Of a stretch of 64,000 nt of DNA, positions 17,150 through 55,935 are shown one piece after another (position 1 is the first letter of the stretch; the number at the start of each line of letters is the position of its first letter). Made by a program: the position numbers and the translations under genes. This stretch comes from an uncultured Pseudomonadales bacterium. GTDB lineage: Bacteria > Patescibacteriota > Microgenomatia > UBA1400 > UBA1449. Where the stretch lies: contig CAYLQQ010000001.1 of NCBI GenBank assembly GCA_964386355.1, forward strand, positions 76,256-140,255, in the 5' to 3' direction. The notes beneath the pieces were generated by a model. The model did not search any database. It had not been told where the DNA came from and worked only from the letters and a program-made list of their open reading frames with translations.

Positions 17150-17240
17150 AAGGGTGGTGATGAAGAGAACCTATTCGAATCTCGTAGCGAACGAAGTGAG
17201 CGAAGATCCAGCTCTGCTGGACTTACCCCCAGCACTAGTT
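17150..17240 (+). repeat. Degenerate copy of the tRNA-Tyr 3' half (TTCGAATC ... TACCCCCAGCACT) interrupted by a ~40-nt GCGAAG-rich hairpin insert; member of the dispersed repeat family
   Basis: 13-mer tacccccagcact is identical at 17096..17108 and 17224..17236. cctattcgaatc resembles the T arm. Insert agcgaacgaagtgagcgaagatccagctctgctggac contains the hairpin GTCCAGC-TCT-GCTGGAC. Confidence 0.6.
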
Positions 17241-18254
17241 CGTAAACAGATATCCCCGCTTACGTACGGTATGAATCAGTTCCCGGTACAACCCTAAGTC
17301 ATGTAATTTTTTACGGATATTCTCAATCACCTTGGCAATTGCATACAATGAAAACTTATCTTCAGTAGCTTTACCCCACAAAGCCATTCCAATCTGGTCG
17401 TAATCAATAATCTCGTTTGGTTGGGTAATCATGAGGCTCAGCACCTGTTGCTCCTGAGCTGTCAAATAATTCTCCAAACCAGTACCATCTGATAACACCA
17501 GTCCTTTGGCAGTTAGTCTGATAGCAGGATCTAGGTCAAAACCCAGTTTTTTAAGATACGTACTACTATCTCTTGCAAGCGTTTCAATACTGATGGTTTT
17601 GGGCGTGGGTTCTGCTGGTGCCAAGGTTGAAAATACAGTATTGTGCATCAAAAATTCTATGGTCGCCATTTTATTGAGCCAGTGGTACTGATAAATTTCA
17701 GCCCGTTTCCTGGTTTGCCTTGTCCAGAAAGCCATCAGTAGCAATTCAATCAATCTAGATACGGTCGTATCTGACCTCATTACAATCATAAGTATCTCTC
17801 CTGAGCCTTCTTTTTTATAATCATAACTTCCGCTGGTGCCATAGGGACTGACATATAGTTCTATCCGCTGTAAGCTGGATATACACTCATGGAGGATCAA
17901 AAAGTCAAGACAGTAGCTAAAAAAACGGGCTTCAATCGCTTGCCACTGAGTTTGAAGATCTGCGTAATCTGTTTGCATGTTTGCCAAACGTTGGATAGCC
18001 TCTTGGACTGCTTTGGCAGGATAGGGTTTGCACAAATCCAGATTGCTTGTTTTTTTAATAATTCGCCAGTATTCGGGACTATACTCAAAATCCGGAAAAA
18101 AGACTGCCTTAACAACATCGGGTACCAGATACGGTAAAACCCAGTATCCGCCTTTTTGAAAGCCGCCCTGCTCTATGGTTTTAGCCAGAAAACACAGGTG
18201 CTGGGCTTGGATTGTTGAGTTTGGCTCAAGCCAGGTGATTGAAGGATATTTCAT
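17235..18254 (-). CDS. Orphan OmpR/PhoB-type winged-helix (trans_reg_C) DNA-binding regulator lacking a receiver domain
   Basis: C-terminal LTAQEQQVLSLMITQPNEIIDYDQIGMALWGKATEDKFSLYAIAKVIENIRKKL...IHTVRKRGYLF matches the OmpR C-terminal wHTH consensus. N-terminal 240 aa unassigned. Confidence 0.6.
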   Translation of the reverse strand: MKYPSITWLEPNSTIQAQHLCFLAKTIEQGGFQKGGYWVLPYLVPDVVKAVFFPDFEYSPEYWRIIKKTSNLDLCKPYPAKAVQEAIQRLANMQTDYADLQTQWQAIEARFFSYCLDFLILHECISSLQRIELYVSPYGTSGSYDYKKEGSGEILMIVMRSDTTVSRLIELLLMAFWTRQTRKRAEIYQYHWLNKMATIEFLMHNTVFSTLAPAEPTPKTISIETLARDSSTYLKKLGFDLDPAIRLTAKGLVLSDGTGLENYLTAQEQQVLSLMITQPNEIIDYDQIGMALWGKATEDKFSLYAIAKVIENIRKKLHDLGLYRELIHTVRKRGYLFTN

Positions 18255-18314
18255 AAAACATTACTTACATTTATCATAGCAAACTCCTGACTATTTGACC
18301 TAGCTACTATCCCC

Positions 18315-18333
18315 ACTCAAACTAAACTCAAGA
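18315..18333 (+). promoter_or_regulatory. Conserved 19-bp box ACTCAAACTAAACTCAAGA (direct repeat ACTCAA-N5-ACTCAA) 34 bp upstream of the 18367 start; candidate operator for the adjacent OmpR-type regulator
   Basis: Identical 19-mer recurs at 19339..19357 upstream of the next gene. The 11-bp repeat periodicity is typical of winged-helix response-regulator sites. Confidence 0.45.
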
Positions 18334-18366
18334 TAATTATTATAGGTCTATTATCCTATTTTAATT

Positions 18367-19323
18367 ATGTGTTGTCCAGAAAGTCCCTTATCTAACCCAA
18401 TTATTAGACTGCCCACATATGCAGGAATGCATCCGGCTAGTCCTAATTCTGAGAGTAACAGGGCAAGAGACGGTATTCAATGGTATGACACTTCCTTAAC
18501 CATCCCATATCCGTTGGCAGAAAAAATCCATATATCTCGCTTTCCTGTTCCCAATAATACGACTGATAAAGAATTTATTTCAAAATATGCCAAAGCACTT
18601 GGTATAGCTTTTGATATGCAAGGCAGGGACTGGCACAGCCAAATAAACCCAATCCAAGATGTTTTAGTCTATGGGGTGGGATCAGGTTTGGATGCCGGAT
18701 ATTTATATGGAGTATGGGGTAGACATAATCAGACTTTTCACATGACAGGAACTCAAGCCAGTAATGAAGAATGGGATATGCTCGATCGGCGGTTCCCAGA
18801 ATTTGCTGCCCAGTTTCATCGAGAAGTTGGAGGACTTGAATGCATGGAACGCTTATATAAAGAAGGTTCAACATTTGACATCATCTCTGCAATGCGGGGG
18901 GTCAGTGGTATCTGGACGGGGACAGCAAGTGATGGTAATAGATACACTCTCAATGATGCCCTATATTATTTTCATAAACTTTCAAAACCAGGCACCATCC
19001 TTATTATGGATGTATTTACGGAAGGCATGGAACAGGTGATGCGCAGGCTTCATGGCCTCTTAGATGAACGATTACCGTTTGAGTTCTACTCTTTCACTCA
19101 AGGAAATAAAGGAGATAAGACAATTACTGGACTAACGGTGTATGAGCTTTTGAACGCTCACAATTTTTTTGTTTTTGACGCTCTACCCTATTGCCACGGT
19201 AGAGCGATGAGAGAGTATATAAATCAAACTGTACCTGAATATGAAGATATGGATGAAATTGTCACTCACTACATCATAACAGCCGTGAAATCACCTCGGA
19301 GACTGCCAAAACTGCCTGACTGA
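18367..19323 (+). CDS. Hypothetical protein, possible class I SAM-dependent methyltransferase fold
   Basis: DVLVYGVGSGLDAGY (motif I-like GxGxG) and ILIMDVF (motif II-like). Weak call. Confidence 0.45.
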   Translation: MCCPESPLSNPIIRLPTYAGMHPASPNSESNRARDGIQWYDTSLTIPYPLAEKIHISRFPVPNNTTDKEFISKYAKALGIAFDMQGRDWHSQINPIQDVLVYGVGSGLDAGYLYGVWGRHNQTFHMTGTQASNEEWDMLDRRFPEFAAQFHREVGGLECMERLYKEGSTFDIISAMRGVSGIWTGTASDGNRYTLNDALYYFHKLSKPGTILIMDVFTEGMEQVMRRLHGLLDERLPFEFYSFTQGNKGDKTITGLTVYELLNAHNFFVFDALPYCHGRAMREYINQTVPEYEDMDEIVTHYIITAVKSPRRLPKLPD

Positions 19324-19338
19324 TAACTTTAGAAATAT

Positions 19339-19357
19339 ACTCAAACTAAACTCAAGA
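19339..19357 (+). promoter_or_regulatory. Second copy of the ACTCAAACTAAACTCAAGA box, 58 bp upstream of the 19415 start
   Basis: Exact 19/19 match to 18315..18333. A weaker third variant cttcaaacaagaactcg lies at ~19977 upstream of 20016. Confidence 0.45.
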
Positions 19358-19414
19358 ATAATATTTATTAAGTAATAAAATTCATTTTTATTGAAGTAAC
19401 ATAATAACTATTTT

Positions 19415-19918
19415 ATGACTCGAGAACGGACTGAACCTAATTTGTTTGTAGATCCATCTCAGTGTAGTGTTGCTATTCGTGAATGGATTACTCAAACTAC
19501 AAAAGGCAAGCAAAGAGAAAGCTTTGAAGTATTATTGGGCTTGACTGATCCTGGAATAGTCATAGCAGCTCTAGGAAGGCTTAAACCAGGAACAACTAAC
19601 TTATTACTAAGTGGTGATATAAGTCTTCAACAGCACTTTGCAACACAACTAGCAAGGAGAATTCTGTTGGTCGGTATGGAAAACAGAGGCATTGTATTAC
19701 CAGGGACTAATGACCCATTGGTAGATAAAGATAGATGCGGAATATGGTTAAATGCGATAGATAGAAGAATTAATAATCGTGAAGAATATTACGAAAAAAT
19801 AAAACATTTTTTAGAATATTTATCTTTCACTCAATTGCCAAATACAAGGAATGTTGATGAATTAAATTTCATGGATTTTTTACAGAAATTAGGATCAAAC
19901 ATTGCTAAGGAAGATTAA
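19415..19918 (+). CDS. Hypothetical protein (167 aa)
   Basis: ORF with AT-rich upstream region carrying the conserved box. No recognisable motif. Confidence 0.45.
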   Translation: MTRERTEPNLFVDPSQCSVAIREWITQTTKGKQRESFEVLLGLTDPGIVIAALGRLKPGTTNLLLSGDISLQQHFATQLARRILLVGMENRGIVLPGTNDPLVDKDRCGIWLNAIDRRINNREEYYEKIKHFLEYLSFTQLPNTRNVDELNFMDFLQKLGSNIAKED

Positions 19919-20015
19919 TATATATTTTTTAAGATAAAACAAAATGATTAGTGAGTAAATAACTGTTAAATTCTAACTTCAAACAAGAACTCGTTACTAA
20001 TTATTTATAAAAAAT

Positions 20016-20351
20016 ATGCCAAATTGCAAAAAAAAAGGGTGTAGCACGTATACATATAGGTTAGTTTTGCCTAAAAAGTTCGTTGAGAATGCTGCTCAAA
20101 ACAGAAGATATAGACTTGATAACAATTTGCCGACACAAATAAGACTATCAGAACTACCCATATATTTATTAGATGCAATGAAAGTACCTGAAGTTGTCCG
20201 CCAGTGTGAGGGTGGTGAGAAATGTTTAGTTAGGCAAATTAAAGAAGGTACTTATCCGTTAGATTCGGATGAATACCTCGCTCAGAATTGTAATAATGGT
20301 GAGCATGTATTTGGACACGAAGCCCCTCGTTCTGATTTTGCAGATCCCTAA
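20016..20351 (+). CDS. Hypothetical protein (111 aa)
   Basis: ORF only. The 3' end would overlap the extended zupT ORF; the zupT start is taken downstream instead. Confidence 0.3.
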   Translation: MPNCKKKGCSTYTYRLVLPKKFVENAAQNRRYRLDNNLPTQIRLSELPIYLLDAMKVPEVVRQCEGGEKCLVRQIKEGTYPLDSDEYLAQNCNNGEHVFGHEAPRSDFADP

Positions 20352-20385
20352 TGCTAGTTTAGTTAGCAGTGTTATAATATCCTCC

Positions 20386-21132
20386 ATGCATGAGTTATTT
20401 TTCATCCTTTTGGCAACGATAAGCGTCAGCTTGTTATCTCTTATCGGCGCCCTCACTACTTCTTTTAACCACAAATCTCTCGACAGATTTTTGCACCTGC
20501 TGGTAGCCTTGGCTGCCGGGACTCTCTTGGGAAATGCTTTTTTTCACCTCCTGCCGGAGGGTCTGGAGCACTCCCCTTCTGTGGAGACCTTTACCCTGAC
20601 TGTCGTGCTGGCGTACTGTGCCTTTTTCCTCATGGAAAAAATCCTGCACTGGCGTCACTGCCATACCCATAACTGCGATACCCACCAGTATGGGACCCTG
20701 AGCCTTGTCGGTGACTCTATTCATAATTTTTTAGACGGCATGATCATCGCTGCAGCCTTTTTACAAAGCCCCAGTTTGGGGGTAGGTACAACGCTGGCAA
20801 TTGCCCTGCACGAACTGCCTCAGGAGATCGGAGATTTTGCCGTTTTACTGCACGCCGGCTACTCGCGCAGCAAAGCCATCCTAGCCAATCTCACAGTGGC
20901 TGCTACGGCCATCCTGGGAGGCTTGATCGGTTATCTTGTCGGAACAGTATCAGATCAATTTAATAGCATCCTGATCGCCCTAGCTTTGGGAGGCTTTATC
21001 TATATTTCAACCTCTGACTTAATTCCTGAAATCCGTAAAGAACCATCTCTTAAAAAATGGCTGACCTCGTTTGGGATGTTTATTGTGGGACTTGGGATTA
21101 TGTGGGGGTCAAAGGTGATAAGTGAACATTAG
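20386..21132 (+). CDS. zupT: ZIP-family metal transporter ZupT
   Basis: HNFLDG and HELPQEIGDFAVLLHAG signature; 8 TM helices. Start chosen at MHELFF to avoid the upstream overlap; the ORF track opens at 20269. Confidence 0.75.
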   Translation: MHELFFILLATISVSLLSLIGALTTSFNHKSLDRFLHLLVALAAGTLLGNAFFHLLPEGLEHSPSVETFTLTVVLAYCAFFLMEKILHWRHCHTHNCDTHQYGTLSLVGDSIHNFLDGMIIAAAFLQSPSLGVGTTLAIALHELPQEIGDFAVLLHAGYSRSKAILANLTVAATAILGGLIGYLVGTVSDQFNSILIALALGGFIYISTSDLIPEIRKEPSLKKWLTSFGMFIVGLGIMWGSKVISEH

Positions 21133-21203
21133 ATTGTGACTTGCTTCCCCATCCTTTGACAGTATAAAATACCTTGTTCTTTATCATGAAGTCACAATTG
21201 TTA

Positions 21204-21460
21204 ATAGCCCGGTAGCTTAAGCGTTAGCGAAATCCAGTAAGCGTAGCGCACTGGGTCAGTTGACGCGAAGCGAAAAGTCTTAGTTTTAAAATATAATATA
21301 GTAGAAAAAAGTCTACTTAATGCCCGGTAGCTTGAGCGTAAGCGAAGTCCAGCTCTGCTGGACAAGCGTAGCGACGTACTTAAGATACAATCTTAAGTAT
21401 CAGTTGGTTCCGAAGTTGAGCATAGCGAAATCCAGTGAATGGAATGAACTGGAGAAAATA
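21204..21460 (+). repeat. Tandem degenerate partial copies of the tRNA-Thr(GGT) 5' end (GCCCGGTAGCT...) fused to AGCGTAGCGAA..TCCAG-type repeat units with hairpins
   Basis: aatagcccggtagcttaagcgttagcgaaatccag at 21204 and aatgcccggtagcttgagcgtaagcgaagtccagctctgctggac at 21318, compared with the tRNA start gcccggatagctcag at 21508. Hairpin TACTTAAGAT-aca-ATCTTAAGTA. Confidence 0.6.
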
Positions 21461-21507
21461 TAAATATTGACAAGGCGATACAAAGGAAGTAATAGTTTGA
21501 GATTATT

Positions 21508-21583
21508 GCCCGGATAGCTCAGTTGGTAGAGCGCATTCTTGGTAAGAATGAGGTCTTGGGTTCGATTCCCAATTCGGGCTCCA
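21508..21583 (+). tRNA. tRNA-Thr (anticodon GGT), CCA encoded
   Basis: Acceptor GCCCGGA/TTCGGGC; anticodon stem-loop CATTC-TTGGTAA-GAATG; T loop GGTTCGATTCC; 3' CCA present. Confidence 0.85.
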
Positions 21584-21647
21584 ATTACCTGCTTAATAGG
21601 GACGAATACTATTCGCCTCTACAAGCCCCCTTTGCTATACTATTTCC

Positions 21648-22955
21648 ATGCCCACCAATCTGCTCACCGATCCCCATACCCTGATTATCTTTACCACCGC
21701 CCCAGCGGGCTTAGGCCATCTGCGGGTTACTCAAGCACTTTGGGAAGGTCTGCCAAAGGGATCACATAGTTTTATTCTGGGCTTACATGACAAAGCCATT
21801 TCTTCTATTCACAGGGCTCTCAGTAATAATCGATTCCTGTTCAATACCCAGCTCTTTGTCCAGCATAACCATAAAGCCGAATCCGTTTTTACCAATCTAT
21901 ATCGAGATAGCTTGAGAAAGCAGTCGCAGGACGTATATGACCAGTTGTACACTCTTATCACCAGCCATCAACCAAAACTAAAAGAGGTTATTATCGTGGC
22001 CACTCACTTTGGCCTGGCTCATCAGATAGCAGAGATCAGGCATCATTTGATCGGAACAACCGGTGTCCATATCAGCCTCCATGTCATTGTGACTGATGAT
22101 ACATTTCAACCCATATGGGCAGTTGAGAATGCCAACAGGCTTTGTGTCCCGAGCCAAAAAATGGCTGACCTATACAAAACATATTTTGAAGATGAAAAGA
22201 TGCGTGTACCAAAAATCGATGTTCAAGCCTACCCTGTATCACCGCAACTAGCTGTATCCAAGCCTGATGTACTCATCAAACGGCGTAAACAGTTGGATTC
22301 TCAAAAAATTCCCACTAGAATATCTATCCCCATCAGTGGTGCATCTACCCAACTCGACTACCTGATGATGTTTGTTCATCACATCACTCAAGATGATACT
22401 GGAAAGTTCCAGGTCAATGCAATCGCTTCACAAAACCCCCTGACTTCATCGTTTGGAAATATTGTCAAACACCTGCCCAATACCCGTATTGCATTTGGAG
22501 CAACAAATCAGGAAACAGTAGAAAAATATACTCAGATGCTGACTGAAGATGAACCGATCACTATTGAAGTCACCAAACCGTCTGAACAAGCCTACAAATG
22601 CCTGTACACACCCAAACAACGAGGTGGCCTACTACTCCTCTTCACTCCCCCTGTTGGCAAACAGGAGGAAGATAACCTGCAATTTCTTAGTAGGCATAAT
22701 CTACTTCCCAACCCCCAGCTATCACAGCAACTCGCGCGTCTTGGAAAACTTACTAAACTAGAAATACATAGTCTTCTCATTGACGCAAAAAAGTGGCGGG
22801 CAATCTGTCTACCCAAACATCCTAGAGAGGCTGCCTCCCAGGTTTACATGCTCAAATCGAGCGGAATACTAAAGGCAATGCTGGAATACAAACGCCCGAA
22901 AGATCTTGAACTGTCTGACAAGGGTGTAGAGATGTTCTGGAAAGGAATATGTTAA
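21648..22955 (+). CDS. Putative GT28-type glycosyltransferase (MGDG-synthase/MurG-like N-terminal G-loop)
   Basis: IIFTTAPAGLGHLRVTQAL resembles the MGDG synthase/MurG N-terminal motif. Tentative. Confidence 0.4.
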   Translation: MPTNLLTDPHTLIIFTTAPAGLGHLRVTQALWEGLPKGSHSFILGLHDKAISSIHRALSNNRFLFNTQLFVQHNHKAESVFTNLYRDSLRKQSQDVYDQLYTLITSHQPKLKEVIIVATHFGLAHQIAEIRHHLIGTTGVHISLHVIVTDDTFQPIWAVENANRLCVPSQKMADLYKTYFEDEKMRVPKIDVQAYPVSPQLAVSKPDVLIKRRKQLDSQKIPTRISIPISGASTQLDYLMMFVHHITQDDTGKFQVNAIASQNPLTSSFGNIVKHLPNTRIAFGATNQETVEKYTQMLTEDEPITIEVTKPSEQAYKCLYTPKQRGGLLLLFTPPVGKQEEDNLQFLSRHNLLPNPQLSQQLARLGKLTKLEIHSLLIDAKKWRAICLPKHPREAASQVYMLKSSGILKAMLEYKRPKDLELSDKGVEMFWKGIC

Positions 22956-22959
22956 GTGT

Positions 22960-24020: not shown

Positions 24021-24035
24021 TACAATTATTTTAAT

Positions 24036-24200
24036 TTTGCATCCCGAGTATCCCTTTGATCTTCAAGATCCTATATACGAGGGATCGTCATCATTAAAAA
24101 TAGAATTTTAATTTAGCACCCTGAGTGTAACCTTGTTTATTCAAGATAATAATCATACGAAGGGTCGCATTATTGGAGCTTAATAAACCTAAGATATTGC
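24036..24200 (+). repeat. Two tandem diverged ~80-bp hairpin-containing units downstream of rpmG (candidate structured RNA or repeat element)
   Basis: ttaattttgcatcccgagtatccc...atacgagggatcgtcatcatt and ttaatttagcaccctgagtgtaacc...atacgaagggtcgcattatt. Internal stems ATCCC...GGGAT and GATCTT-c-AAGATC. Confidence 0.4.
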
Positions 24201-26539: not shown

Positions 26540-26640
26540 AAAGATGGGCCCGCTGAAGCATAGCGACGTCCCTTGAGTGTAACGAAAGGGATAGCCGAGC
26601 GAGTAAAACGAGCGAAGTACTTACCATTTCATGGTAAGTA
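26540..26640 (+). repeat. Repeat-family element (partial tRNA-Ala 5' copy GGGCCCGCTGAAGCATAGCGAC plus hairpins) ~145 bp upstream of tRNA-Ala
   Basis: gggcccgctgaagcatagcg compared with the tRNA start gggcccgtagctcac. Hairpins CCCTT..AAGGG and TACTTACCAT-ttc-ATGGTAAGTA. gagcgagtaaaacgagcgaag. Confidence 0.55.
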
Positions 26641-26697
26641 TCACTTTAATCAGTAACTTTGCAAACTAGTAGGGCTTTGAAATTTACAATCAAACTT

Positions 26698-45975: not shown

Positions 45976-46069
45976 ATTATGAAGATCGTGCTTTAGCATG
46001 GTCGTCAGAATTTATTCCTGGCAATCCCAACCGAAGGTTGTGGATAGCAAAGATCTGACTTATCAGACT

Positions 46070-46110
46070 ATGGCCCTAACGGCTTAAGCGTAGCGAACGG
46101 GATAACAAAG
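46070..46110 (+). repeat. Repeat-family element (ggcttaagcgtagcgaacggg) between nusG and rplK
   Basis: Shares cttaagcg(t)tagcgaa with 21216. Confidence 0.45.
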
Positions 46111-46233
46111 ATTTAGGTTTCCTAAATCTAGGAATGATAGATTGGGGAGACTATACTGTATCTTGTAAGCAGAATCGGATTGAATATCATTTATATTTAG
46201 GTATAATAGCAGTTTGTTATTAGTCTTAATCAT

Positions 46234-47496: not shown

Positions 47497-48995
47497 GTCT
47501 CTATCCTTCCTATTTCTATTGTGCATATTCCAGCGAATTCTGTATTTATGTTCATTTTCCTTATCATTCTTTGATATATTTATTTACTCATTTTACGTTT
47601 CTTAGTATATTAAATTTTTTAATTAGAGGTATTGATACCCAGTAGCTTCTTACCACTCGTATTATCAGTTATTGCTTTCACTAGGCTCTTATGTCTTTCT
47701 TTATACTGTATTTATATGGTTTTCCTCATTAATATTATTTTATATGACTGTATTCTTACTATCATAATCTCAATATTTTTCCATAATTTCTTTACTATAT
47801 GAAATAAAAGATTCTAATATATGGTTCTTTTTAGTATGTATGATCTACTACCATGGTTTTAATGTGATGTATAACCTAAATAAATAAAGAACCTGTATTT
47901 TCTATTTATAAACGTATGTTTACATACCTTTATTTATTTTTTTGTATACCACCGTCTTCATAGGCATTGATTATGTAAAAGTCGTAATGTTTCACGAACT
48001 ATATATTTTCGTAATATTTCCTTAACTTTATATAGTTGAATTATATTTCTTATCTTCCACCACTTATTGTTCTTTGTCTGTTTTATTGTTGGTGTCTTAT
48101 TATTATTCCACATTTGCTATCATTTATATTATCAAAACATGCTCATATTTGCCAATTTCAATCTCATTCAAAATGACGTTATCTGATGTAACAATCAACA
48201 ATAACTATACTATGTCGTTTATTTTTTAATAGAAAATATAATAATTTATGTCTACTCATTTGTAGCTAGCACTATGTGTAACAGTTTGCTTTTGTTATGT
48301 ATTAGGTGCCATTCAATAATCCTCTATGTATTACTATTAGGATTACATTTTTAGATTAGTTATTATATTCTTACATTCGTTGTAGGTAGACCTAAGGGTA
48401 ATGTGTTAAATTTAAACCTAACGCGTTCTATAGAGGTATTAAAATGCTTTCAGTGACTAGCAAATCAAAGTAATATTTGCCAGCCTATGTAAGGTTATGG
48501 TTATAGATTGATTAAACAGTAATAATAGCATCATAACTAATTAGCACATAAATTCTCATGTATAAATAAAATTTATGAATAATTGGCTATTACTATCTAT
48601 GGATCTATATACACAGATAACGACTTAGAGATACATTAATATGTAATGTCATCAGTCGTAAAGAGGAATATTAATAACTGTTGGTGACGTATAACTGTGA
48701 CACCAGTATAAACAATACTAAACTTAATGAATTTAACTATTTATATTCTATTTATGGATTATCCAGTTGAAATAGATATAAAAAATTATGAAGAAGGTAT
48801 TAATGCACATTTATAAATAGACTATAGGAATAACTATCATATAGCATACCTTTTGAAGACAATTATTAGCCAATAATTATGCATTGACTATAATTAATCA
48901 AAAACTATTGACACGTAAATCATGATTATTACTATCAATGTATGAAGGTAGACTCTTGCAATTTCATATGTATATTGTATACTAAGCTGTTTCCA
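47497..48995. other. ~1.5-kb AT-rich (~25-30% GC) ORF-free spacer separating rplA from the rplJ leader
   Basis: No ORF of 60 aa or more in any frame. Base composition is sharply lower than the flanking genes. Confidence 0.6.
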
Positions 48996-48997
48996 TA

Positions 48998-49175
48998 GAC
49001 AGTGTGGCCGTGTCGAGTGATTTGCAAAATTCACACGACCATCTCAATCAAGTCACAAGACCTGATTGAGATGTGAAATCGACATGTAAGACCCACCGAG
49101 GAGCAAAACAAGTTGAGATATAGTCTTGTATTATGTTAGCTTGTTATATGCGCCTCTAGATAGGCGCTTTTTTAT
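48998..49175 (+). promoter_or_regulatory. Structured rplJ leader (long nested inverted repeats) ending in an attenuator-like hairpin plus T-run; candidate L10(L12)-binding autoregulatory leader
   Basis: CTCAATCA..TGATTGAG 8-bp stem; GTCGAGTGA..GAAATCGAC; terminator gcgcctctagataggcgctttttt at 49150..49175, ~115 nt before the rplJ ATG. Confidence 0.4.
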
Positions 49176-49289
49176 TTTTAAATATAGAAAATAAAGTTAG
49201 TGAATGTAAAAATACTTCGTTACAGGCTCTGTATATATAGTCAGAGATAATAAGGATAGAGGTAACTTACATCTATTAACCAATCCGCT

Positions 49290-49802: not shown

Positions 49803-49930
49803 ACATTATTAACAGAGGTAACATTAATCTTAGGCTTAGTAAGCGATTATAAACACAGTTCATAACAAGTAACTACATCTTTTGTTATTTGTTTACTGAA
49901 TTTTGAACAATTTAAAGGAGGTGAGCAATC

Positions 49931-50338
49931 ATGGCAGACGAACAAGTAAAAGTAAGTGAAAAACTTACAAAAATCATGGAGTCAATCGAAACATTAACTG
50001 TTTTGGAACTCGCAGATCTGGTTAAAGCATTGGAAGACAAATTTGGTGTCAGTGCTGCCGCCCCAGTTGCCGTGGCTGCCGCCCCGGTCGCAGGTGCCGC
50101 CAGTGCTGCTCCAGTTGAAGAAAAAACAGAGTTTGACGTCATCCTGACTGCTGCTGGTGCTAATAAAATTGGCGTCATTAAAGCAGTTCGTACACTCAAA
50201 CCTGATCTTGGTTTGAAAGAAGCTAAGGACTTAGTCGAAGGCGCTCCCAAACCAGTGTTGGAAGCTGCTAAGAAAGAAGATGCTGAAAAAGCAAAAGCTA
50301 TCTTAGTTGAAGCCGGCGCACAAGTCGAGCTTAAATAA
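49931..50338 (+). CDS. rplL: 50S ribosomal protein L7/L12
   Basis: Ala-rich hinge; C-terminal [52 protein letters not shown]. Confidence 0.95.
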
Positions 50339-50830
50339 GCTTTAGATTTGCTATAAACCTAAAACCTTGGGAGCAATCTCAAGGTTTTTTGTAGAGTAAC
50401 TGCTTGACCTGTAAGTCCAGTCGAGTAAGACCGCATAGTTAGATTAAAATAGAAATATAACTTGTGGCCCTAAAAAGGTAAAAGTTATAGACTGGGCGCA
50501 CAAGTCGAATTGAAATAATTCGACCTGTAAGTACTGAGTAGCGCAAGCTACTCATGTAAGCGCAAGTTGAGTTGAAGTAATATTCTCTCATATGCAAAGA
50601 CAAAACCCTAGGTATCCCCTAGGGTTTTTTGTAAGGATGCCTATACTCAACTGGCCATCCCATCAAAGCATTAATTAATAAACAAAAATACGTGTGGAAT
50701 TCAACTTACGACCCTAATATGATATAAAGCTACCGATGGGGCGCGCAAGTTGAACTTAAGTTAGCTTTAGATTTGCTATAAACCTAAAACCTCTGGACTT
50801 TCAGTTTCGGGGTTTTTTGTTGGCAATAAA
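50320..50830 (+). repeat. Three degenerate copies of the rplL 3' end (GAQVELK-stop) each followed by a hairpin terminator; mosaic repeats
   Basis: ggcgcacaagtcgagcttaaataa (50320), gggcgcacaagtcgaattgaaataa (50495), gggcgcgcaagttgaacttaagttag (50742). Shared agctttagatttgctataaacctaaaacc at 50344 and 50768. Terminators ccttggg..ctcaaggtttttt and ccctagg..cctagggtttttt. Confidence 0.7.
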
Positions 50831-51077
50831 GTTCTTTATTTATCATTACCATTTCTGAATAACATCAGGAACGGGTAATTATTTTGAAAAAATACTATAA
50901 TTGTAGTCTTCTAGCTATACCTGTTATGTAAAGCATGCTACATGCATAGGATCCCTCATTCTTGATTCCCATTCAGAAAAGGAGATAGCAAACAGAAAGC
51001 CATACTTGACACACTACACATCTTTTTGTTATTTTGAGTAGTAGTAATGTAGTATTTGTATCACAAGGAGGTACTCT

Positions 51078-51320
51078 ATGATGGATCTTAATATATCAAA
51101 CAATAAACTTAGTGATAAAAAAAGGGTAAAGATGGATGATCTACCTGACCTTCTCACCGTTAAAGAAGTAGCAGAACTTCTCAGGGTTGCTCCGCTCACC
51201 ATAAAACGCTGGGGTAAAAGAGGCAAGCTCCCTCCTATCCGTATCAATGCCCGAGGTGATCGTCGCTATAAAAAAGAGTCAGTACTATGGCTTCTGGGTA
51301 TCACGCCGAAAGAGAATTAG
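51078..51320 (+). CDS. Excisionase-family (MerR-like HTH_17) DNA-binding protein, orphan
   Basis: LLTVKEVAELLRVAPLTIKRWGKRGKLPPIRI..RGDRRYKKESVLWL is the classic Xis/HTH_17 pattern. Strong RBS AAGGAGG. Confidence 0.6.
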   Translation: MMDLNISNNKLSDKKRVKMDDLPDLLTVKEVAELLRVAPLTIKRWGKRGKLPPIRINARGDRRYKKESVLWLLGITPKEN

Positions 51321-52051
51321 TTCTTAGTTCTTAGTATTCTCCACACAAACTCTACTAATTTGAGTTGACGCTTCCAACGTGATGGTTCTTGGATTAGGCG
51401 GTATAGCCACTCCAAGTTTAGCTTTTGCAACCACAATGGCGGCCGACTTAAATTGCCCGCATAAACATCAAACGCTCCACCAACTCCTATTGCCAATCTT
51501 ACATGTGGCATTTTATTGAGATACTTTGATATAAATAGTTCTTGTTTTGGAGCACCCAAAGCTACAAAGAGTATCTCCACTTTCTCATCCTGTATTTTTT
51601 GGACAATCTCTGTATCCGCTTTACCATATTCATAGTATGGCAAAGCAATAATATCTACATTTGGAATCAGTTTGCGAAGTCTGTCAGCAGCTTTTGAAGC
51701 TACCCCATCAAGACCACCTAACAAACCTACTTTCATATGTGCGCCATACGTTTTACAAAGATACAGCATCAAGTCTATACCTGTTACGCGCTCTATTGGT
51801 CTGAATACGCCCTGTTTGGCTAGGATTCTTTTTGCTGCCCAAACCAAACCTATCCCGTCAGGTACGTTAAGGTCGGTATGTTGTAGAACAGTAAAATAAT
51901 TGTGTTGCTTTTGAGCGAGTATGATGTGTTCAGGATTGGGGGTAGCAATAAATACCTGTTTTTTTTCTTCAAGCAAGCGCAAAACGGCACTATCAATGCT
52001 TTTCCAGGTAACACAATCTATTGGTATTCCTAACACAGTAATCTTATCCAT
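51317..52051 (-). CDS. WecB/TagA/CpsF family glycosyltransferase (N-acetylmannosaminyltransferase-like)
   Basis: TPNPEHI, VPDGIGLVWA, GAPKQE, GVGGAFD, LEWLYRLIQEPSRWKR. Start at MDKITVLGIPID. Confidence 0.8.
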   Translation of the reverse strand: MDKITVLGIPIDCVTWKSIDSAVLRLLEEKKQVFIATPNPEHIILAQKQHNYFTVLQHTDLNVPDGIGLVWAAKRILAKQGVFRPIERVTGIDLMLYLCKTYGAHMKVGLLGGLDGVASKAADRLRKLIPNVDIIALPYYEYGKADTEIVQKIQDEKVEILFVALGAPKQELFISKYLNKMPHVRLAIGVGGAFDVYAGNLSRPPLWLQKLNLEWLYRLIQEPSRWKRQLKLVEFVWRILRTKN

Positions 52052-52056
52052 AGAAA

Positions 52057-52797
52057 TTATGGTAACGGATTTTGGCACGCAATTTTTGAGCGCAAATCTT
52101 CCTCAAATCGCAAAATCTGTGCAAAGCCTCGCTTATAGAGCTTTACAGCTGATTTGGTATAGAGAGGATCCACCTCCACGCCTGTATTTTTTTGCTTGTT
52201 AGTTCCATAATACCAGTCGTTGAAAAAACTCACTTTCTCAAGTGCTAGTTCAAGTTTACCTTCCCGCTCAAGCTGGGTAAGCAGTTGAGGCAGTCCTTTT
52301 CTTGCTTTTTCGATCGTAAATACGGGATCAAGCTTAGTAACATGCAAATACGAAAGCATTGTGTAAATGCCGATGGGATTAAGACCCGCACCCCGATCAG
52401 CATCAACTAATAATCTTCCGACAATATTATCAGAATGCAGCAGTTGTGGTTTGTTATGCTCCCGTACAGCCTGCAACACCTTGTATATGCCTTCACGGCC
52501 TAATTGTTTTTGAAAGGGGGCTACTATTGATTTACTTTTCTGATAAGAGATTTCTGCATGATTTGACTTAGTAAATTCCAACCCTGTCTCCTCACCTACC
52601 CTACCAATATCGTGTAACCAGCATGCAATTTCAACAAGTACAGTATTTAATGAACTTAAGTGTTCTTTTTTCGATAATAACCTGCCATTTTTTACAACCC
52701 GCCGAATGTGGTGAATATCATGAACCCAGTCAGTAATTTGACTGTACTGTGCAATGCATTGGTGTTTGATCTGGTCAATAATCAGTGAACGAGTCAA
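52057..52797 (-). CDS. HD-domain phosphohydrolase
   Basis: HDIHHIRRV ... LHDIGR (H...HD...D pattern). Confidence 0.6.
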   Translation of the reverse strand: MTRSLIIDQIKHQCIAQYSQITDWVHDIHHIRRVVKNGRLLSKKEHLSSLNTVLVEIACWLHDIGRVGEETGLEFTKSNHAEISYQKSKSIVAPFQKQLGREGIYKVLQAVREHNKPQLLHSDNIVGRLLVDADRGAGLNPIGIYTMLSYLHVTKLDPVFTIEKARKGLPQLLTQLEREGKLELALEKVSFFNDWYYGTNKQKNTGVEVDPLYTKSAVKLYKRGFAQILRFEEDLRSKIACQNPLP

Positions 52798-52931
52798 TAG
52801 AATTAATGGTCAATTTACAATTATCAATTTCCAATATATGTTTTACTGTTTATTTTCACTATGTACACGTTAGATCATACTAGTTCATTGAAAATTGTAT
52901 TTTGAAAATTAGTTTCTATTATACCAATTAT

Positions 52932-53939
52932 TTATCTCCTCGATAAACTCTTTTTATACATATCCAAGTGTTCTAAAACCACACCTGTTCCTTTGGCAAC
53001 GCAGAAAAGCGCATCTTCAGCTACATAACAGGGAATTCCCGTCTCTTGGGATAAGAGAGAGTCAAAATTTGCCAACATGCTTGTCCCCCCTGTCATAACT
53101 AATCCCTTATCAATAATATCTGAAGCAAGTTCCGGGGGAACTTCCTCAAGAACTTTCTTTACCATTGTTACTATTTGAGAAAGTGGATGGCTAAACGCTT
53201 CAACAACATCATTGCTGCTTATCTGGAGGCGCTTAGGTAAGCCGGATACTACATCCCTACCTTTAACCATCATTGTTTTTTCCTGTTTCAATTTCAGGGC
53301 TGAACCGATACGTAATTTAACTTCTTCTGCAGTTGTTTCTCCAATGATCAGACCATAACGCTTGCGTACCCATGCTATAAGGCCATCATCAAGCCTGCTT
53401 CCTGCTACACGCACTGAGCGATGAACAACTACTCCTCCTAGAGAAATGACTGCAGATTCTGCTGCTCCACCACCAATATCTAAAACCATATTTCCTGAAG
53501 GTTCGCCAATGGGTACCCCTGCGCCTATAGCAGCAGCTAATGGCTCCTGAATAATGTAAACCGATGATGCCCCGGCAGCTATGGTGGCATCCTCTACAGA
53601 CCGTTTCTCAACTTGTGTTGCTCCAGCAGGTATGCAAATGAGCACCTCAGGTCTAAAAAACATAGATCGCCCTACTGCTTTTTGGATAAAGTAACGCAGC
53701 ATTGCCTCAGTTATAGAGTAATCGGCAATGACTCCATCGCGCATCGGACGCTTTGCAAGAATATTTCCCGGTGTTCTACCGAGCATTTCTTTAGCTTCAT
53801 GACCAACTGCAACCACTTTCTTATCGTATACAGACACAGCTACAACTGTCGGTTCATTGAGGACAATACCTTTACCCGCCACATATACAAGCGAATTTGC
53901 AGTTCCTAAATCGATGCCAATACGAGAGCGAAAAGACAT
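52932..53939 (-). CDS. mreB: Rod-shape-determining protein MreB, paralog 2
   Basis: IGIDLGTANSLVYV, DIGGGAAE. Start at MSFRSRIGIDLG. Confidence 0.85.
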   Translation of the reverse strand: MSFRSRIGIDLGTANSLVYVAGKGIVLNEPTVVAVSVYDKKVVAVGHEAKEMLGRTPGNILAKRPMRDGVIADYSITEAMLRYFIQKAVGRSMFFRPEVLICIPAGATQVEKRSVEDATIAAGASSVYIIQEPLAAAIGAGVPIGEPSGNMVLDIGGGAAESAVISLGGVVVHRSVRVAGSRLDDGLIAWVRKRYGLIIGETTAEEVKLRIGSALKLKQEKTMMVKGRDVVSGLPKRLQISSNDVVEAFSHPLSQIVTMVKKVLEEVPPELASDIIDKGLVMTGGTSMLANFDSLLSQETGIPCYVAEDALFCVAKGTGVVLEHLDMYKKSLSRR

Positions 53940-54183
53940 TATAAATGTACCAATTTCCAATGATCAATTTATAATTAGCCCTTAAATATGCTATTTTAAA
54001 AATAAATATAAGCCTCACGAACTACATTGAGAATTGGTTTTGTAAATTATGTTTTTCCTATACAAACCCATCTTTAGGCATTATAATCTACCCATATCGG
54101 GAAAACAAAACAAAATGGAATAGTTTTCTCTCTCTGTTCACTACGGAAACTATACTATAATAATTTTAAATATAAATTAAAAC

Positions 54184-55560
54184 ATGAATCAACGGCTTCT
54201 CATTACTTTAGCTATTGCCATTTTCCTTGTTGGGGGAACTATTTTTGCAATCCGGTGGGCTCAAGGGTATCGATATAATGTAAAAAACCAAACTCTTGAG
54301 GGAAATGGCTTATTGGTAGTTAATTCCCTACCCAAGGGAGCAACCGTATACATTGATGATGAACTTTCTACTGCCACCGATGATACGCTACATATGTCAC
54401 CGGGTGAGTATGCAATCCGCATAGAAAAAGACGGATATAATACTTGGAATAAAAAGTTAAAACTTGAAAAAGAGCTTGTTACCCAAACTAATGCCCGCCT
54501 ATTTCCCTCTGTTCCGAACCTGGCAGCACTCACTGTTAATGGAGCAAGTAATATAACACCTTCTCCAAATGGACAAATGCTTGCTTTCCAAATTGCCACA
54601 GGCTCAGCCCAAATAAAGTACGGTATTTGGGTGCTCAATATGAGCGAAGGTATGCTGCGCGGTGGGGGTAGTGCTGTGCAGGTTATCAAAGATACTGCTA
54701 ACTTGGAATTTTCGAAAGCGCGACTCTTCTGGAATCCAAACTCAAGTGAAATTTTAGCCTACTTTTCCGAAACACAAAGCTATCTTTTGCCTACAAACGC
54801 AGAACAGAAACCCCAAAACCTAATCAATGTTGCACTTCAGTTGCCCCTTATCATTGAAGATTGGCAAAAACAGATAGCCTTGCAGCAGCAAAAACGCTTA
54901 GCGAAACTACCTATACAGATGCAAGAGATCGCAACCCAGTCTGCTACCCTCCTCTATTTCTCACCAAATGAGAAAAAGCTACTCTACGTTGCTACACAGT
55001 CTGCCCAACTTGATGAAAATCTTATTCCGCCCCTACCAGCAATCAACTGCCAACCACAGGAACGCACCCTACATACCGGAACTGTCTATTTGTATGACAG
55101 TGAAGAAGATACTAATTTTGCGATAGCCCGTGATATGTTTGACCAAACACAACTACTTCAGATTGTGGATCAGTTTATGCTTCCTACTGTAACAGATGAT
55201 GAGATTGCAAATTTTCCCTCTACCAGCCCGTCACCCAGAATACCCACTAAAAAAACAGTTACCACCAAACAGTCGCCAACCAGTTTACAATTATTAACGA
55301 ACATTCATACCCATTATTCGCCAGTATATAGTCCCCTGACCTATCAGTGGTTCCCTGATTCATACCACTTAATATTGACTGGTAAAGACAAAGTAAGTTT
55401 GGTTGAATATGATGGGTCAAATGAAACTGAAGTCTACGGTGGTATGTTCCTTGAAGGTTTCTCCTATCCGTGGCCTAACGGTCAGAAGCTGGTCATTCTA
55501 ACATCTTTAACTACCAACCCCCTTACCTTTGCAAATCTGTACGGACTCAATCTAGAGTAG
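54184..55560 (+). CDS. Membrane-anchored PEGA-domain protein with a large C-terminal extracytoplasmic region (beta-propeller-like)
   Basis: TM LLITLAIAIFLVGGTIFAI. PEGA-like LPKGATVYIDDELSTATDDTLHMSPGEYAIRIEKDGYNTWNKKLKLEKE. Confidence 0.6.
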   Translation: MNQRLLITLAIAIFLVGGTIFAIRWAQGYRYNVKNQTLEGNGLLVVNSLPKGATVYIDDELSTATDDTLHMSPGEYAIRIEKDGYNTWNKKLKLEKELVTQTNARLFPSVPNLAALTVNGASNITPSPNGQMLAFQIATGSAQIKYGIWVLNMSEGMLRGGGSAVQVIKDTANLEFSKARLFWNPNSSEILAYFSETQSYLLPTNAEQKPQNLINVALQLPLIIEDWQKQIALQQQKRLAKLPIQMQEIATQSATLLYFSPNEKKLLYVATQSAQLDENLIPPLPAINCQPQERTLHTGTVYLYDSEEDTNFAIARDMFDQTQLLQIVDQFMLPTVTDDEIANFPSTSPSPRIPTKKTVTTKQSPTSLQLLTNIHTHYSPVYSPLTYQWFPDSYHLILTGKDKVSLVEYDGSNETEVYGGMFLEGFSYPWPNGQKLVILTSLTTNPLTFANLYGLNLE

Positions 55561-55568
55561 TATGTTTG

Positions 55569-55640
55569 TGCCCCCAGGGGGAATTGAACCACCATTTAAG
55601 GTTTAGGAAACCTCCGTTCTATCCGTTGAACTATGAGGGC
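55569..55640 (-). tRNA. tRNA-Arg (anticodon CCT)
   Basis: Reverse-complement cloverleaf: acceptor GCCCTCA/TGGGGGC; anticodon loop TTCCTAA; T loop TTCAATT. Confidence 0.65.
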
Positions 55641-55771
55641 AATAGCAATTTTCAAATTCCAATTTTCAATCAATTAGAGTAAAATTCTATCGTATTGTAG
55701 CAAAAGAATTGGCTTTTCGGGATGTTGTGTGGTCATATACATGCAGGAAACAAGCGATTCCTTTTTTATTT

Positions 55772-55842
55772 CGGGGTATGGTCTAGTGGTATGATACGCG
55801 GTTCGGGATCGCGTGACGCCAGTCCGATTCTGGCTACCCCGA
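55772..55842 (+). tRNA. tRNA-Pro (anticodon CGG) with non-canonical T loop (C at position 55) and short D stem
   Basis: Acceptor CGGGGTA/TACCCCG; anticodon loop TTCGGGA (as in E. coli proK); T arm GCCAG-TCCGATT-CTGGC. Confidence 0.5.
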
Positions 55843-55849
55843 CAAATAG

Positions 55850-55935
55850 TACTGGGCAATTGTAACGGCGTACCAGTCCTCCCTTTCGCTTCGCTCAAGG
55901 GATTTCGCTCCTAACGTCGCTCAAGATTCTGATTA
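55850..55935 (-). repeat. Repeat-family elements in reverse orientation (gagcgaagcgaaaggg, gagcgaaatccc, tgagcgacg) downstream of tRNA-Pro
   Basis: Plus strand reads ctttcgcttcgctcaagggatttcgctcctaacgtcgctcaag. Confidence 0.5.

Follow-up and report, generated by a model that had tools for sequence, protein, structure and literature searches.

Features of the window

The window, a 64-kb stretch of DNA from a Beckwithbacteria-like (CPR) genome, analysed at its full length, carries seven tRNA genes and a family of very short repeats. Eleven units at five loci (A to E) have in common a 15-nt box, TTGAGCGTAGCGAAA or a variant of it, followed by a hairpin. All of them are intergenic and can be folded as hairpins, and the element measures 31-46 nt. 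At four of the five loci a tRNA gene is found at a distance of 37-291 nt, in keeping with the proximity to tRNA genes reported in the first-pass annotation; the exception is unit D, whose nearest tRNA gene is 9.4 kb away. The features are listed in Table 1.

Table 1. Repeat units, tRNA fragments and associated features of the window
Feature	Position	Strand	Remark
Hairpin GTCCAGATTTTCTGGAT, TCCAG..CTGGA stem type, without box, upstream of tRNA-Thr(tgt)	15998..16014	+	
Exact 12-nt copy of tRNA-Thr(tgt) 16241-16252 (TAGAGCGCCTGT)	16023..16034	+	
tRNA-like 5' fragment GCCGAGATGGCTCAGTGGTAGACC, acceptor strand and D arm	16054..16077	+	read from the sequence
Exact 15-nt copy of tRNA-Thr(tgt) 16243-16257	16148..16162	+	
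Near-palindrome, 40 nt, terminator-like, between tRNA-Tyr and its decayed copy	17109..17148	.	
Decayed tRNA-Tyr copy, 5' part through T loop (GGGTGGTG...CCTATTCGAATC)	17152..17181	+	
Unit A: double box and hairpin TCCAGC-tct-GCTGGA	17182..17221	+	after GAATC
Decayed tRNA-Tyr copy, 3' end	17222..17236	+	17224-17236 repeats the 13 nt of 17096-17108 exactly
tRNA-Thr(ggt) 5' fragment, copy 1 (GCCCGGTAGC)	21207..21216	+	
Unit B1: box and hairpin TCCAGT/ACTGGG	21217..21255	+	second box as loop
tRNA-Thr fragment, continuation (TCAGTTGAC)	21256..21264	+	
Partial box GCGAAGCGAAAAGTC	21265..21279	+	
tRNA-Thr(ggt) 5' fragment, copy 2	21322..21331	+	
Unit B2a: box and TCCAGC-tct-GCTGGA	21332..21362	+	16-nt hairpin is that of unit A
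Unit B2b: box AAGCGTAGCGAC and 10-bp hairpin TACTTAAGAT/ATCTTAAGTA	21364..21399	+	second subtype
tRNA-Thr continuation (TCAGTTGGT, 9 nt exact) and possible T-loop remnant TCCGAAG	21400..21415	+	
Unit B3: canonical box TTGAGCATAGCGAAA and TCCAGT-11 nt-ACTGGA	21416..21453	+	36.7 bits
tRNA-Ala 5' acceptor fragment GGGCCCG	26546..26552	+	
Unit C1: box and TCCCTT-GAGTGTAACGA-AAGGGA	26553..26591	+	
TAGC, the following four tRNA-Ala bases	26592..26595	+	
Unit C2: boxes and hairpin TACTTACCAT/ATGGTAAGTA	26596..26640	+	at TAGC^TCA
TCACTT, the following six tRNA-Ala bases	26641..26646	+	
183-nt block in the nusG-rplK gap	45981..46163	+	
Degenerate box-in-loop hairpin	46024..46045	+	L008 counterpart is ATCCCCGAGCGAAGCGAGCGGGAT
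Unit D: box TTAAGCGTAGCGAAC and 9-bp hairpin AGATTTAGG/CCTAAATCT	46084..46129	+	
Decayed tRNA-Pro T-arm fragment (GTACCAGTCC)	55870..55879	+	
Unit E: box and TCCCTT-GAGCGAAGCGA-AAGGGA	55880..55924	-	after GAATC, on the fragment's antisense strand
Decayed tRNA-Pro 3' end	55925..55947	+	20/23 identical to 55826-55848

The dispersed family proposed in the first-pass annotation is genuine, its positions agree with the unit coordinates to a few bases, and the perfect stems quoted there fold as described. Allowing at most one mismatch, TAGCGAARTCCAG occurs three times in the window against 0.12 expected (0 of 100 shuffles), and the 29-nt box-stem-box-stem pattern occurs three times against 0.00 expected. 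A covariance model of the hairpin, which had been proposed as a check, was seeded mostly with sequences of other organisms. Its best match in the window is 21416-21453 (36.7 bits), followed by 21332-21362 (33.6) and 21217-21255 (19.6); lower scores were obtained at 55891-55924 on the minus strand (15.2) and 17206-17221 (14.6), and the lowest at 26573-26587 (12.9) and 46084-46097 (11.7). The top score in 828 kb of unrelated loci, used as a control, was 16.8 bits.

The stem-loop lies directly 3' of the box. Its outer pairs are conserved as TCC...GGA or, in a second subtype, as TACTTA...TAAGTA, while the inner pairs are variable in sequence yet complementary. In the hairpin, 98.5% of cells are paired, with 47 double changes against 13.3 in shuffles (0 of 500), and the covariation score is 0.193, whereas sliding the partners yields no score above 0.02. 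G-T wobbles are found only on the box strand, with UG at the basal pair in 29 of 77. Variants of the box core (GCGTAGC, GCGAAGC, GCGTTAGC and GCGTAAGC) fit GCG(N)NAGC, a DNA-specific rule for unusually stable mini-hairpins (PMC13037366). No RNA family of Rfam 15 matches the units: at the gathering score only tRNAs were found in the window, and a search of 15 loci returned only tRNAs, one LSU rRNA and two riboswitches, all apart from the elements. A CRISPR-like array was dropped as an explanation given the lack of repeat-spacer regularity and of cas genes, and a homing spacer of a type V-K CAST given the lack of cas and tns genes.

Insertion into decayed tRNA copies

The first-pass annotation had described the repeats as joined to degenerate copies of the ends of the neighboring tRNA. 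The fragments do belong to the adjacent tRNA, but the units interrupt them and are not simply fused to their ends. Each tRNA piece matches the adjacent gene, lies outside the repeated unit and is collinear with the gene. For example, GCCCGGATAGCTCAGTTGG of tRNA-Thr is collinear with GCCCGGTAGC, B1 and TCAGTTG, and in the second copy with B2 followed by TCAGTTGG; GGGCCCGTAGCTCACTT of tRNA-Ala is collinear with GGGCCCG, C1, TAGC, C2 and TCACTT, in that order. The same holds for tRNA-Tyr with TTCGAATC, unit A and CTTACCCCCAGCACT, and for the antisense of tRNA-Pro with CAGAATC, unit E and GGACTGG. The flanks in the window rejoin as contiguous tRNA sequence without duplicated bases, and the two ends of the unit differ. 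The fragments were not called as tRNA by ARAGORN at relaxed thresholds over the whole window, nor by Rfam in E-value mode over 15900-17300, where there was no sub-threshold tRNA match either. Split tRNA halves were considered and dropped: the fragments are too short and the second half is missing.

Two interruption points recur. The Thr and Ala copies are broken in the D stem, at TAGC^TCA, and the Tyr and Pro copies in the T loop, after GAATC. B1 and B2 have 31 nt in common at 90% identity and may represent one insertion that was duplicated later, so that about two independent events at TAGC^T and two at GAATC^ remain. These few events may reflect a site preference. Units A to C point in the direction of the tRNA next to them, and unit E is antisense to the tRNA-Pro fragment. 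Promoter-like hexamers can be read upstream of region B.

Distribution among relatives and in other organisms

Presence of the units varies among relatives. Locus D is a 183-nt composite block rather than one unit; it is present between nusG and rplK in the window and in L008 and L009, and absent in L010, L002 and L006. (The NusG-based scan of genome contigs returned mainly Firmicutes; L010 and L011 were relevant and the remainder served as negative controls.) An origin of D by transposition of the tRNA-Ala composite C was considered and rejected, since the alignment past the box is not significant (z = 0.7). At tRNA-Trp, units are present in L002, where they are antisense to their tRNA, and there are none in the window. 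The tRNA-Tyr and tRNA-Thr loci of the relative L210 have no units. The ZIP-transporter neighborhood of region B is not syntenic in relatives, so that they offer no orthologous site without the units for comparison.

In metagenomes, an 18-mer scan found the box in at least 120 contigs with G+C contents of 0.32-0.68, from very different bacteria. Among the matches listed, the copies consist of the box and TCC-NNN-loop-NNN-GGA with covarying inner pairs, and 63 of 69 lie outside long ORFs. Copies are inserted cleanly into heptamer repeat arrays, without target duplication (L101, L109, L141 and L142), and both tandem arrays and nested copies occur. The base preceding the element is usually G in other phyla, among the matches listed, versus C in the window, and inverted doublets beginning with GTAG were seen only in high-GC metagenome contigs. 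Targeting of tRNA genes, as suggested in the first-pass annotation, is a local property: it is seen at the two recurrent positions of the window, but elsewhere only 3 of 127 copies, among the matches listed, lie within 500 nt of a tRNA, against 2.3 expected. The strict 29-nt double-box pattern, a narrow query, had no match in the genome contigs, a viral scan matched mainly an unrelated phage coding sequence, and plasmid searches with metagenome-type units yielded almost no matches.

Neither the 64-kb window nor about 130 kb of related CPR loci yielded a gene for a transposase, an integrase or a reverse transcriptase. Elsewhere, some copies adjoin genes for Y1 transposases. At L098 such a gene, IS200-like, is flanked by filled and empty copies of one repeat of about 130 nt, and L140 resembles a REP-associated tyrosine transposase, below the cutoff. 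PF01797 was matched by 2 of the 80 ORFs nearest to copies, and fragments of Y1 genes are located near copies at L127 and L150.

Possible modes of spread

The units are probably REP-like, non-autonomous hairpin elements of single-stranded DNA, whose link to tRNA genes reflects a local site preference together with survival in dead copies. Such an element would act as folded single-stranded DNA, and an HUH-type enzyme (a Y1 or RAYT-like transposase) encoded elsewhere would cut and paste, or copy, the units in trans. Entry would take place at short specific sites and leave the target unduplicated. The sites accepted in the window genome would be TAGC^T and GAATC^, strings universal in the D stem and T loop of tRNAs. 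A copy landing in a functional tRNA gene or in coding sequence would kill the cell, and as a result copies would build up only in the decayed partial tRNA duplicates beside the real genes. The rolling-circle origin of pC194 agrees with this reading: the hairpin adjoining its nick site has the box at 15 of 15 positions, and initiation is negligible at an origin that lacks half of this hairpin (PMC7072734).

Instead of a mobile element, the units could be a signal read by the host on single-stranded DNA, either a site of the sso or ssi type, where RNA polymerase or primase would prime or initiate synthesis, or an accessory site of a rolling-circle Rep; the copies would then derive from integrated rolling-circle plasmids, phages or ICEs, or the chromosome would have co-opted the signal. 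In ssoA, the CS-6 hexamer sits in a terminal loop. The box sequence TAGCGA resembles this hexamer, TAGCGT, which is part of a folded region of about 160 nt that also contains the RSB (PMC4598088), and the priming sites of G4 and ssiA have mini-hairpins as well (PMC13037366). In the pC194 hairpin, TTGAGCGTAGCGAAA (15 of 15 bases identical) forms the loop, closed by a GGATT/AATCC stem, beside the nick site of the HUH Rep. Conservation of the box across phyla would suit a universal machinery, and the confinement of wobbles to the box strand also fits a signal of this kind. However, the units are far shorter than ssoA, the RSB is absent from the window at up to three mismatches, and no rep, mob or integrase genes were found near the units in the window and related CPR loci. 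A host-read signal also leaves the insertion into tRNA fragments, the tandem arrays and the nesting unexplained, and we regard it as unlikely.

The units might also have spread by reverse transcription of an RNA intermediate, the route proposed for the SDRs of Nostoc (21-27 nt). This would fit a size close to that of SDRs and for the nesting and heptamer-repeat insertion of the metagenome copies, but there is no reverse transcriptase in the window or beside copies, the adjacent enzymes being Y1 DNA transposases, which makes this route improbable.

tRNA genes are classic integration sites, and the fragments could be att sites left by repeated site-specific integration and excision, with the boxes as arm sites of the recombinase. 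Scars of this kind would be direct repeats of the 3' part of a tRNA on either side of an element with an integrase. The 3' end of tRNA-Tyr indeed has an exact 13-nt duplicate 115 nt downstream, and that of tRNA-Pro a 23-nt duplicate (87%) downstream. The Thr and Ala fragments, however, are 5' ends located upstream of their gene, which tRNA-targeting integrases do not make; the units lie within the fragments and not at their borders; no integrase was found in the window; and the 30-nt unit recurs far from tRNAs in many phyla. Integration scars are accordingly very improbable.

Very improbable as well is a role as structured RNA modules co-transcribed with the tRNAs, be it in processing, stability or regulation, of which the first-pass annotation had proposed processing and regulation: the orientation of units A to C, the strand-specific structure with G-U-type wobbles and the promoter-like hexamers would agree with it, but the units disrupt the D stem or T loop of fragments that are dead anyway, are antisense in unit E and at tRNA-Trp of L002, are missing from the same tRNA loci of relatives, show no orientation bias relative to flanking genes across phyla (among the matches listed), match no Rfam family and follow a mini-hairpin rule that is specific to DNA.

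Returning to the REP-like element, one of its features calls for a broader view. REP families are normally lineage-specific, and an 18-nt box found across phyla may therefore mark a signal for universal host machinery. It is conceivable, if doubtful, that TTGAGCGTAGCGAAA and TCC-NNN-loop-NNN-GGA together make up a portable module of single-stranded DNA in universal use, in which the mini-hairpin marks a site for an HUH nuclease, for host priming, or for both. If so, this would explain why CPR bacteria, contigs with G+C contents of 0.32-0.68, the origin of a Gram-positive rolling-circle plasmid and the mitochondria of gymnosperms have the same 15-18 nt in common. The module, about 30 nt long, would be among the smallest mobile DNAs known, a single family in bacteria and organelles. 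Were it common to REP-like repeats of many phyla, the rolling-circle origin and the Bpu elements described below, scattered observations would become one testable system, and one would have to ask by which enzyme the box is read, and if the enzyme recognizes it through the DNA mini-hairpin. In CPR genomes, the unusual intergenic mosaics next to tRNA genes would be decaying tRNA duplicates colonized by mobile hairpins and not new RNA genes, which bears on annotation and on the reading of small-RNA data.

Comparison with known systems

The units resemble several known systems in part. The first-pass annotation had called them MITE- or SINE-like. They are indeed small, non-autonomous intergenic insertions, with filled and empty sites, lineage-specific presence, nesting and tandem arrays. 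Strictly speaking, however, they are neither MITEs nor SINEs, since terminal inverted repeats and target-site duplications are lacking, as is a tRNA-derived body with an internal promoter. Palindrome-associated elements derived from IS200/IS605 likewise insert 3' of a short specific target without duplication, but they have two distinct ends and a total length of more than 100 nt, in contrast to a single hairpin of 31-46 nt. Elhai et al. are said to have described in 2008 the Nostoc SDRs as 21-27 nt long, nested, inserted into heptamer arrays and confined to the Nostocaceae. By description, not by sequence, the units share the tiny hairpins, nested insertions and heptamer arrays; they differ in size and in not being confined to one family. 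The pC194 hairpin is no dispersed repeat: it occurs once, as a functional part of the plasmid's origin.

Similar in sequence are the Bpu elements, 36 bp long, which occur in about 500 copies in the mitochondria of Cycas and Ginkgo (PMC8297867). In their consensus, AAGGTTATCCCTTTCCTGAGCGTAGCGAAGGGAAGG, the string TGAGCGTAGCGAA occupies the loop of a TCCCT/AGGGA hairpin, which is almost the same as in units E and C1, and the core TGAGCG(T/A)AGCGAA plus the TCCCT stem are common to the window units. Bpu elements differ in being organellar and in having terminal AAGG direct repeats and a Bpu10I site (CCTGAGC), both absent from the window units; the arrangement of a 5' box followed by a hairpin is not described for Bpu. 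The Bpu10I site is printed as CCTGAAGC, while the consensus quoted in the same paper reads CCTGAGC (PMC8297867).

REP/REPIN-RAYT systems differ from the units in three respects besides the conservation of the box across phyla. GTAG or GTGG lies 5' of the stem in REPs, whereas in the units GTAG is inside the 15-nt box, 5 nt from the stem, with the variants ATAG, GTTAG and GTAAG in window boxes; copies in high-GC contigs start directly with GTAG. The inverted doublets of REPINs, which have a counterpart in those of the high-GC contigs, are replaced in the window by single units or direct series, and no RAYT was seen in the window or related CPR loci. Other features are shared: the units are short extragenic hairpins that qualify as imperfect palindromes of 20-40 nt, they are non-autonomous, fold on one strand, insert without target duplication and carry a conserved 5' motif containing GTAG, and Y1/RAYT-like genes flank some copies in organisms other than that of the window.

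Genomic context and structure of the repeat

The window has a GC content of ~0.40, seven tRNA genes, a gene order that includes nusG-rplK-rplA...rplJ-rplL and many ORFs without a Pfam match. The nearest named homologues of its NusG belong to Candidatus Beckwithbacteria and Microgenomates, and the source organism is a CPR/Patescibacteria bacterium. The repeat motif of the first-pass annotation is real: in the window, TAGCGAARTCCAG with at most one mismatch has three matches against 0.12 expected, and a 29-nt box-stem-box-stem pattern has three against 0.00 expected. Box-like strings are concentrated in five intergenic loci, and 11 units have exact coordinates; those referred to by letter are listed in the table.

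Each unit consists of a 15-nt box, TTGAGCGTAGCGAAA (variants TTAAGCGTTAGCGAAA, TTGAGCGTAAGCGAAG, TTGAGCATAGCGAAA and CTGAAGCATAGCGAC), followed by a hairpin of the form TCC-NNN...NNN-GGA, with inner stems AGC, AGT or CTT, or TACTTA-NNNN...NNNN-TAAGTA. The hairpins quoted previously fold as described. The 11-nt loops of B1, B3, C1 and E in turn resemble a box (AAGCGTAGCGC, GAATGGAATGA, GAGTGTAACGA, GAGCGAAGCGA), with two inner pairs covarying round a GNA triloop (GC-GAA-GC, GT-GTA-AC, AT-GGA-AT). The cores GCGTAGC, GCGAAGC, GCGTTAGC and GCGTAAGC obey the GCGNAGC/GCGNNAGC rule of exceptionally stable DNA mini-hairpins (PMC13037366). The two long hairpins downstream of rpmG, CCCGAGTATCCCTT...GAGGGAT and CCTGAGTGTAACCTT...GAAGGGT, share the GAGTGTAAC mini-hairpin variant with C1 and could be degenerate members of the family that escape R1, our covariance model of the box-hairpin.

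Box-hairpin units and other features (window positions unless a locus is named)
Feature	Position	Sequence context	Reference or remark
A	17182-17221	TTCGAATC-A-CTTACCCCCAGCACT	tRNA-Tyr ...TTCGAATCCTACCCCCAGCACT
B1	21217-21255	GCCCGGTAGC-B1-TCAGTTG	tRNA-Thr GCCCGGATAGCTCAGTTGG
B2a, B2b	21332-21362, 21364-21399	GCCCGGTAGC-B2a+B2b-TCAGTTGG	tRNA-Thr GCCCGGATAGCTCAGTTGG
B3	21416-21453		
C1, C2	26553-26591, 26596-26640	GGGCCCG-C1-TAGC-C2-TCACTT	tRNA-Ala GGGCCCGTAGCTCACTT
D	46084-46129		
E	55880-55924 (minus)	CAGAATC-E-GGACTGG (antisense strand)	tRNA-Pro
211-aa ORF	16420-17055 (+)		
Two long hairpins	24040-24170		
Ribosomal protein L1	46669-47496		275 aa
AT-rich rplA-rplJ stretch	47497-49289; L003 8839-10424; L006 11487-12798; L008 2373-4129; L217 12093-12949		
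Three-copy repeat	50315-50797	GGCGCACAAGTCGAGCTTAAATAAGC...	families D8, D11
23S-rRNA-IVS/bAvd gene	L002 7944-8303		also in L003, L004, L005
Y1 transposase gene	L098 4545-5760		Cys-rich N-terminal extension
Unit arrays	L151 2197-2378; L120 141-209		five copies; two copies
Unit beside T-arm-like string	L140 87-127	GACAGGATTCGAACCAAGTC	unrelated organism

Units interrupt tRNA fragments

The reported proximity to tRNA genes holds for four of the five loci, at distances of 37-291 nt (tRNA-Tyr, Thr(ggt), Ala and Pro; p ~0.01 for four of five in tRNA-flanking intergenic DNA, a rough estimate), but not for locus D, in the nusG-rplK gap, where the nearest tRNA is 9.4 kb away. The interleaving of units with tRNA sequence, not this statistic, is decisive for the tRNA relation. 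tRNA-derived copies are present, as had been proposed, but the units split short copies of the adjacent tRNA instead of being joined to tRNA ends, and the tRNA flanks rejoin as contiguous tRNA sequence. Aligned to the tRNAs, the flanks therefore place B1, B2 and C2 at one position (TAGC^TCA, D stem) and A and E at a second common position (after GAATC, T loop). Units in tRNA fragments have no target duplication. Because B1 and B2 have 31 nt in common at 90% identity, they may descend from a single insertion that was duplicated later. The Tyr locus looks like a tandem whole-gene duplicate that later lost its middle, and upstream of tRNA-Thr(tgt) there are more box-free fragments that resemble tRNA.

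A species whose NusG is 87% identical also has the family. In the relative L002, reverse-orientation units lie just 3' of tRNA-Trp and are themselves followed by a partial tRNA-Trp 3'-end copy, and another unit is at 7260; the window's own tRNA-Trp has none. A 183-nt D block occurs in the window and L008/L009 (93%) and is missing from L010 (95%), L002 (87%) and L006 (81%). Neither fragments nor units accompany tRNA-Thr(tgt) and tRNA-Tyr in L210, and L215 and L217 hold no convincing element, the single 16.9-bit match in L215 being on a par with the best control match. The tRNA-fragment mosaics are recent and lineage-specific.

Other features of the region

The 211-aa ORF fills the tRNA-Thr(tgt)/tRNA-Tyr gap, overlaps the tRNA-Tyr start and contains a LAGLIDADG-like string, YMAGLMIYWGEGAK. 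It has no match in Pfam, NCBIfam or PDB sequence searches, and could encode a free-standing homing endonuclease next to the tRNA genes; the L210 spacer has a matching length (733 nt against 728 nt). The Pfam match of ribosomal protein L1 (265-282 aa in relatives) falls into two separate stretches, suggesting that this L1 has an insertion that typical L1 lacks. The lineage's rplA-rplJ gap is AT-rich, ORF-free and 0.9-1.8 kb long, well beyond the length of an L10 leader, without an Rfam match at gathering score. A 24-58-nt repeat occurs in a series of three copies that begins within the rplL 3' end and continues downstream (spacing 180 and 245 nt). The 23S-rRNA-IVS/bAvd gene of L002 belongs to a family with links to diversity-generating retroelements and is separated by ~650 nt from a box-hairpin unit; no window counterpart was noted.

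Distribution across metagenomes

A search of metagenome contigs with TTRAGCRTAGCGAAATCC yielded at least 120 loci with GC of 0.32-0.68. Among the matches listed, nearly all low-GC ones are the box plus TCC-NNN-loop-NNN-GGA, inner stems include CGC/GCG, GCC/GGC, AGC/GCT, CGA/TCG and TGG/CCG, and high-GC ones show a permuted form, GTAG-CCCGGA-(box)-TCCGGG, as inverted doublets. In 79 distinct aligned copies among these matches, 98.5% of cells are paired; in this alignment, which was fitted to the model, double changes number 47 against 13.3 in shuffles (0/500), and sliding the partners lowers the covariation score from 0.193 to at most 0.02. The seed of R1 comprised 15 real metagenome rows plus six idealised rows, which reuse window or metagenome stems, with some loops shortened. 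R1 recovers the window units, and 828 kb of control loci gave no match above 16.8 bits. The box-hairpin family has no Rfam match.

Among the matches listed, copies are not enriched near tRNAs: 3 of 127 lie within 500 nt of one, against 2.3 expected. Of 69 distinct low-GC copies among these matches, 63 are outside long ORFs, and orientation is even (27 same and 21 opposite to the upstream gene; 19 and 23 to the downstream gene). In L140 a unit abuts a tRNA T-arm-like string, with a RAYT-like gene 1 kb away.

Insertion behaviour and candidate enzymes

Units sit cleanly within heptamer tandem repeats in L101, L109, L141, L142 and L194. L151 and L120 carry arrays of a 31-32-nt unit with a 38-nt period and a fixed 6-7-nt linker; L151 has an additional copy upstream of an rRNA operon's tRNA-Ile/tRNA-Ala genes, at a distance of ~460 nt. 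In L098 an inverted ~130-nt repeat, which recurs in ~20 other metagenome loci, flanks a Y1 transposase gene (Pfam Y1_Tnp, 6.9e-14; NCBIfam IS200, 54.9 bits, cutoff 55). A 30-nt box-hairpin insertion is present on one flank only, one copy being filled (...caag-(30 nt)-gaaaatg) and the other empty (...caaag/aagatg). The best NCBIfam match of a 312-aa L140 protein is REP-associated tyrosine transposase (1.9e-16, below cutoff), and L127 and L150 encode protein fragments with an NHFHLLL motif. Of the 80 ORFs closest to elements among the matches listed, 2 match PF01797, far above the family's usual share of genes.

Interpretation and relation to known systems

The best-supported reading is that the repeats are a REP-like, non-autonomous hairpin element. 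It would act as single-stranded DNA, with an HUH enzyme working on it in trans; its local association with tRNAs would reflect preferred sites, TAGC^T and GAATC^, combined with survival in dead tRNA copies only.

The most interesting alternative that remains is a host-read single-strand-DNA signal, sso/ssi-like. The pC194 rolling-circle origin, TAAAGGATTTGAGCGTAGCGAAAAATCCTTTTCTTTCTTATCTTGATA, carries the box at 15/15 nt in a GGATT/AATCC hairpin, which we confirmed in NC_002013 (R1 score 20.9 bits). The stretch just downstream presumably holds the Rep nick site (CTTGATA). An origin without the 5' half of this hairpin worked as a terminator, with negligible initiation (PMC7072734). The ssoA CS-6 hexamer TAGCGT (PMC4598088) is similar to TAGCGA of the box; the ssoA RSB motif is not in the window. 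Integrase att scars, and retro-mobility as proposed for the SDRs of Nostoc, also remain; neither an integrase, a reverse transcriptase nor a Y1-type gene was found in the window or the CPR loci examined. Co-transcribed RNA signals remain as the weakest alternative.

As a hairpin element, the family belongs to an already known kind, small hairpin repeats (REP, SDR, Bpu). The Cycas mitochondrial Bpu consensus, AAGGTTATCCCTTTCCTGAGCGTAGCGAAGGGAAGG, has the box in a TCCCT/AGGGA hairpin, as in E and C1 (PMC8297867); the searchable literature gave no other context for the 15-18-nt box string. New are a repeat family of this kind in CPR bacteria, its lodging in tRNA debris at two fixed positions and, apparently unreported, a box identical across copies in many phyla, a rolling-circle origin and plant mitochondrial repeats.
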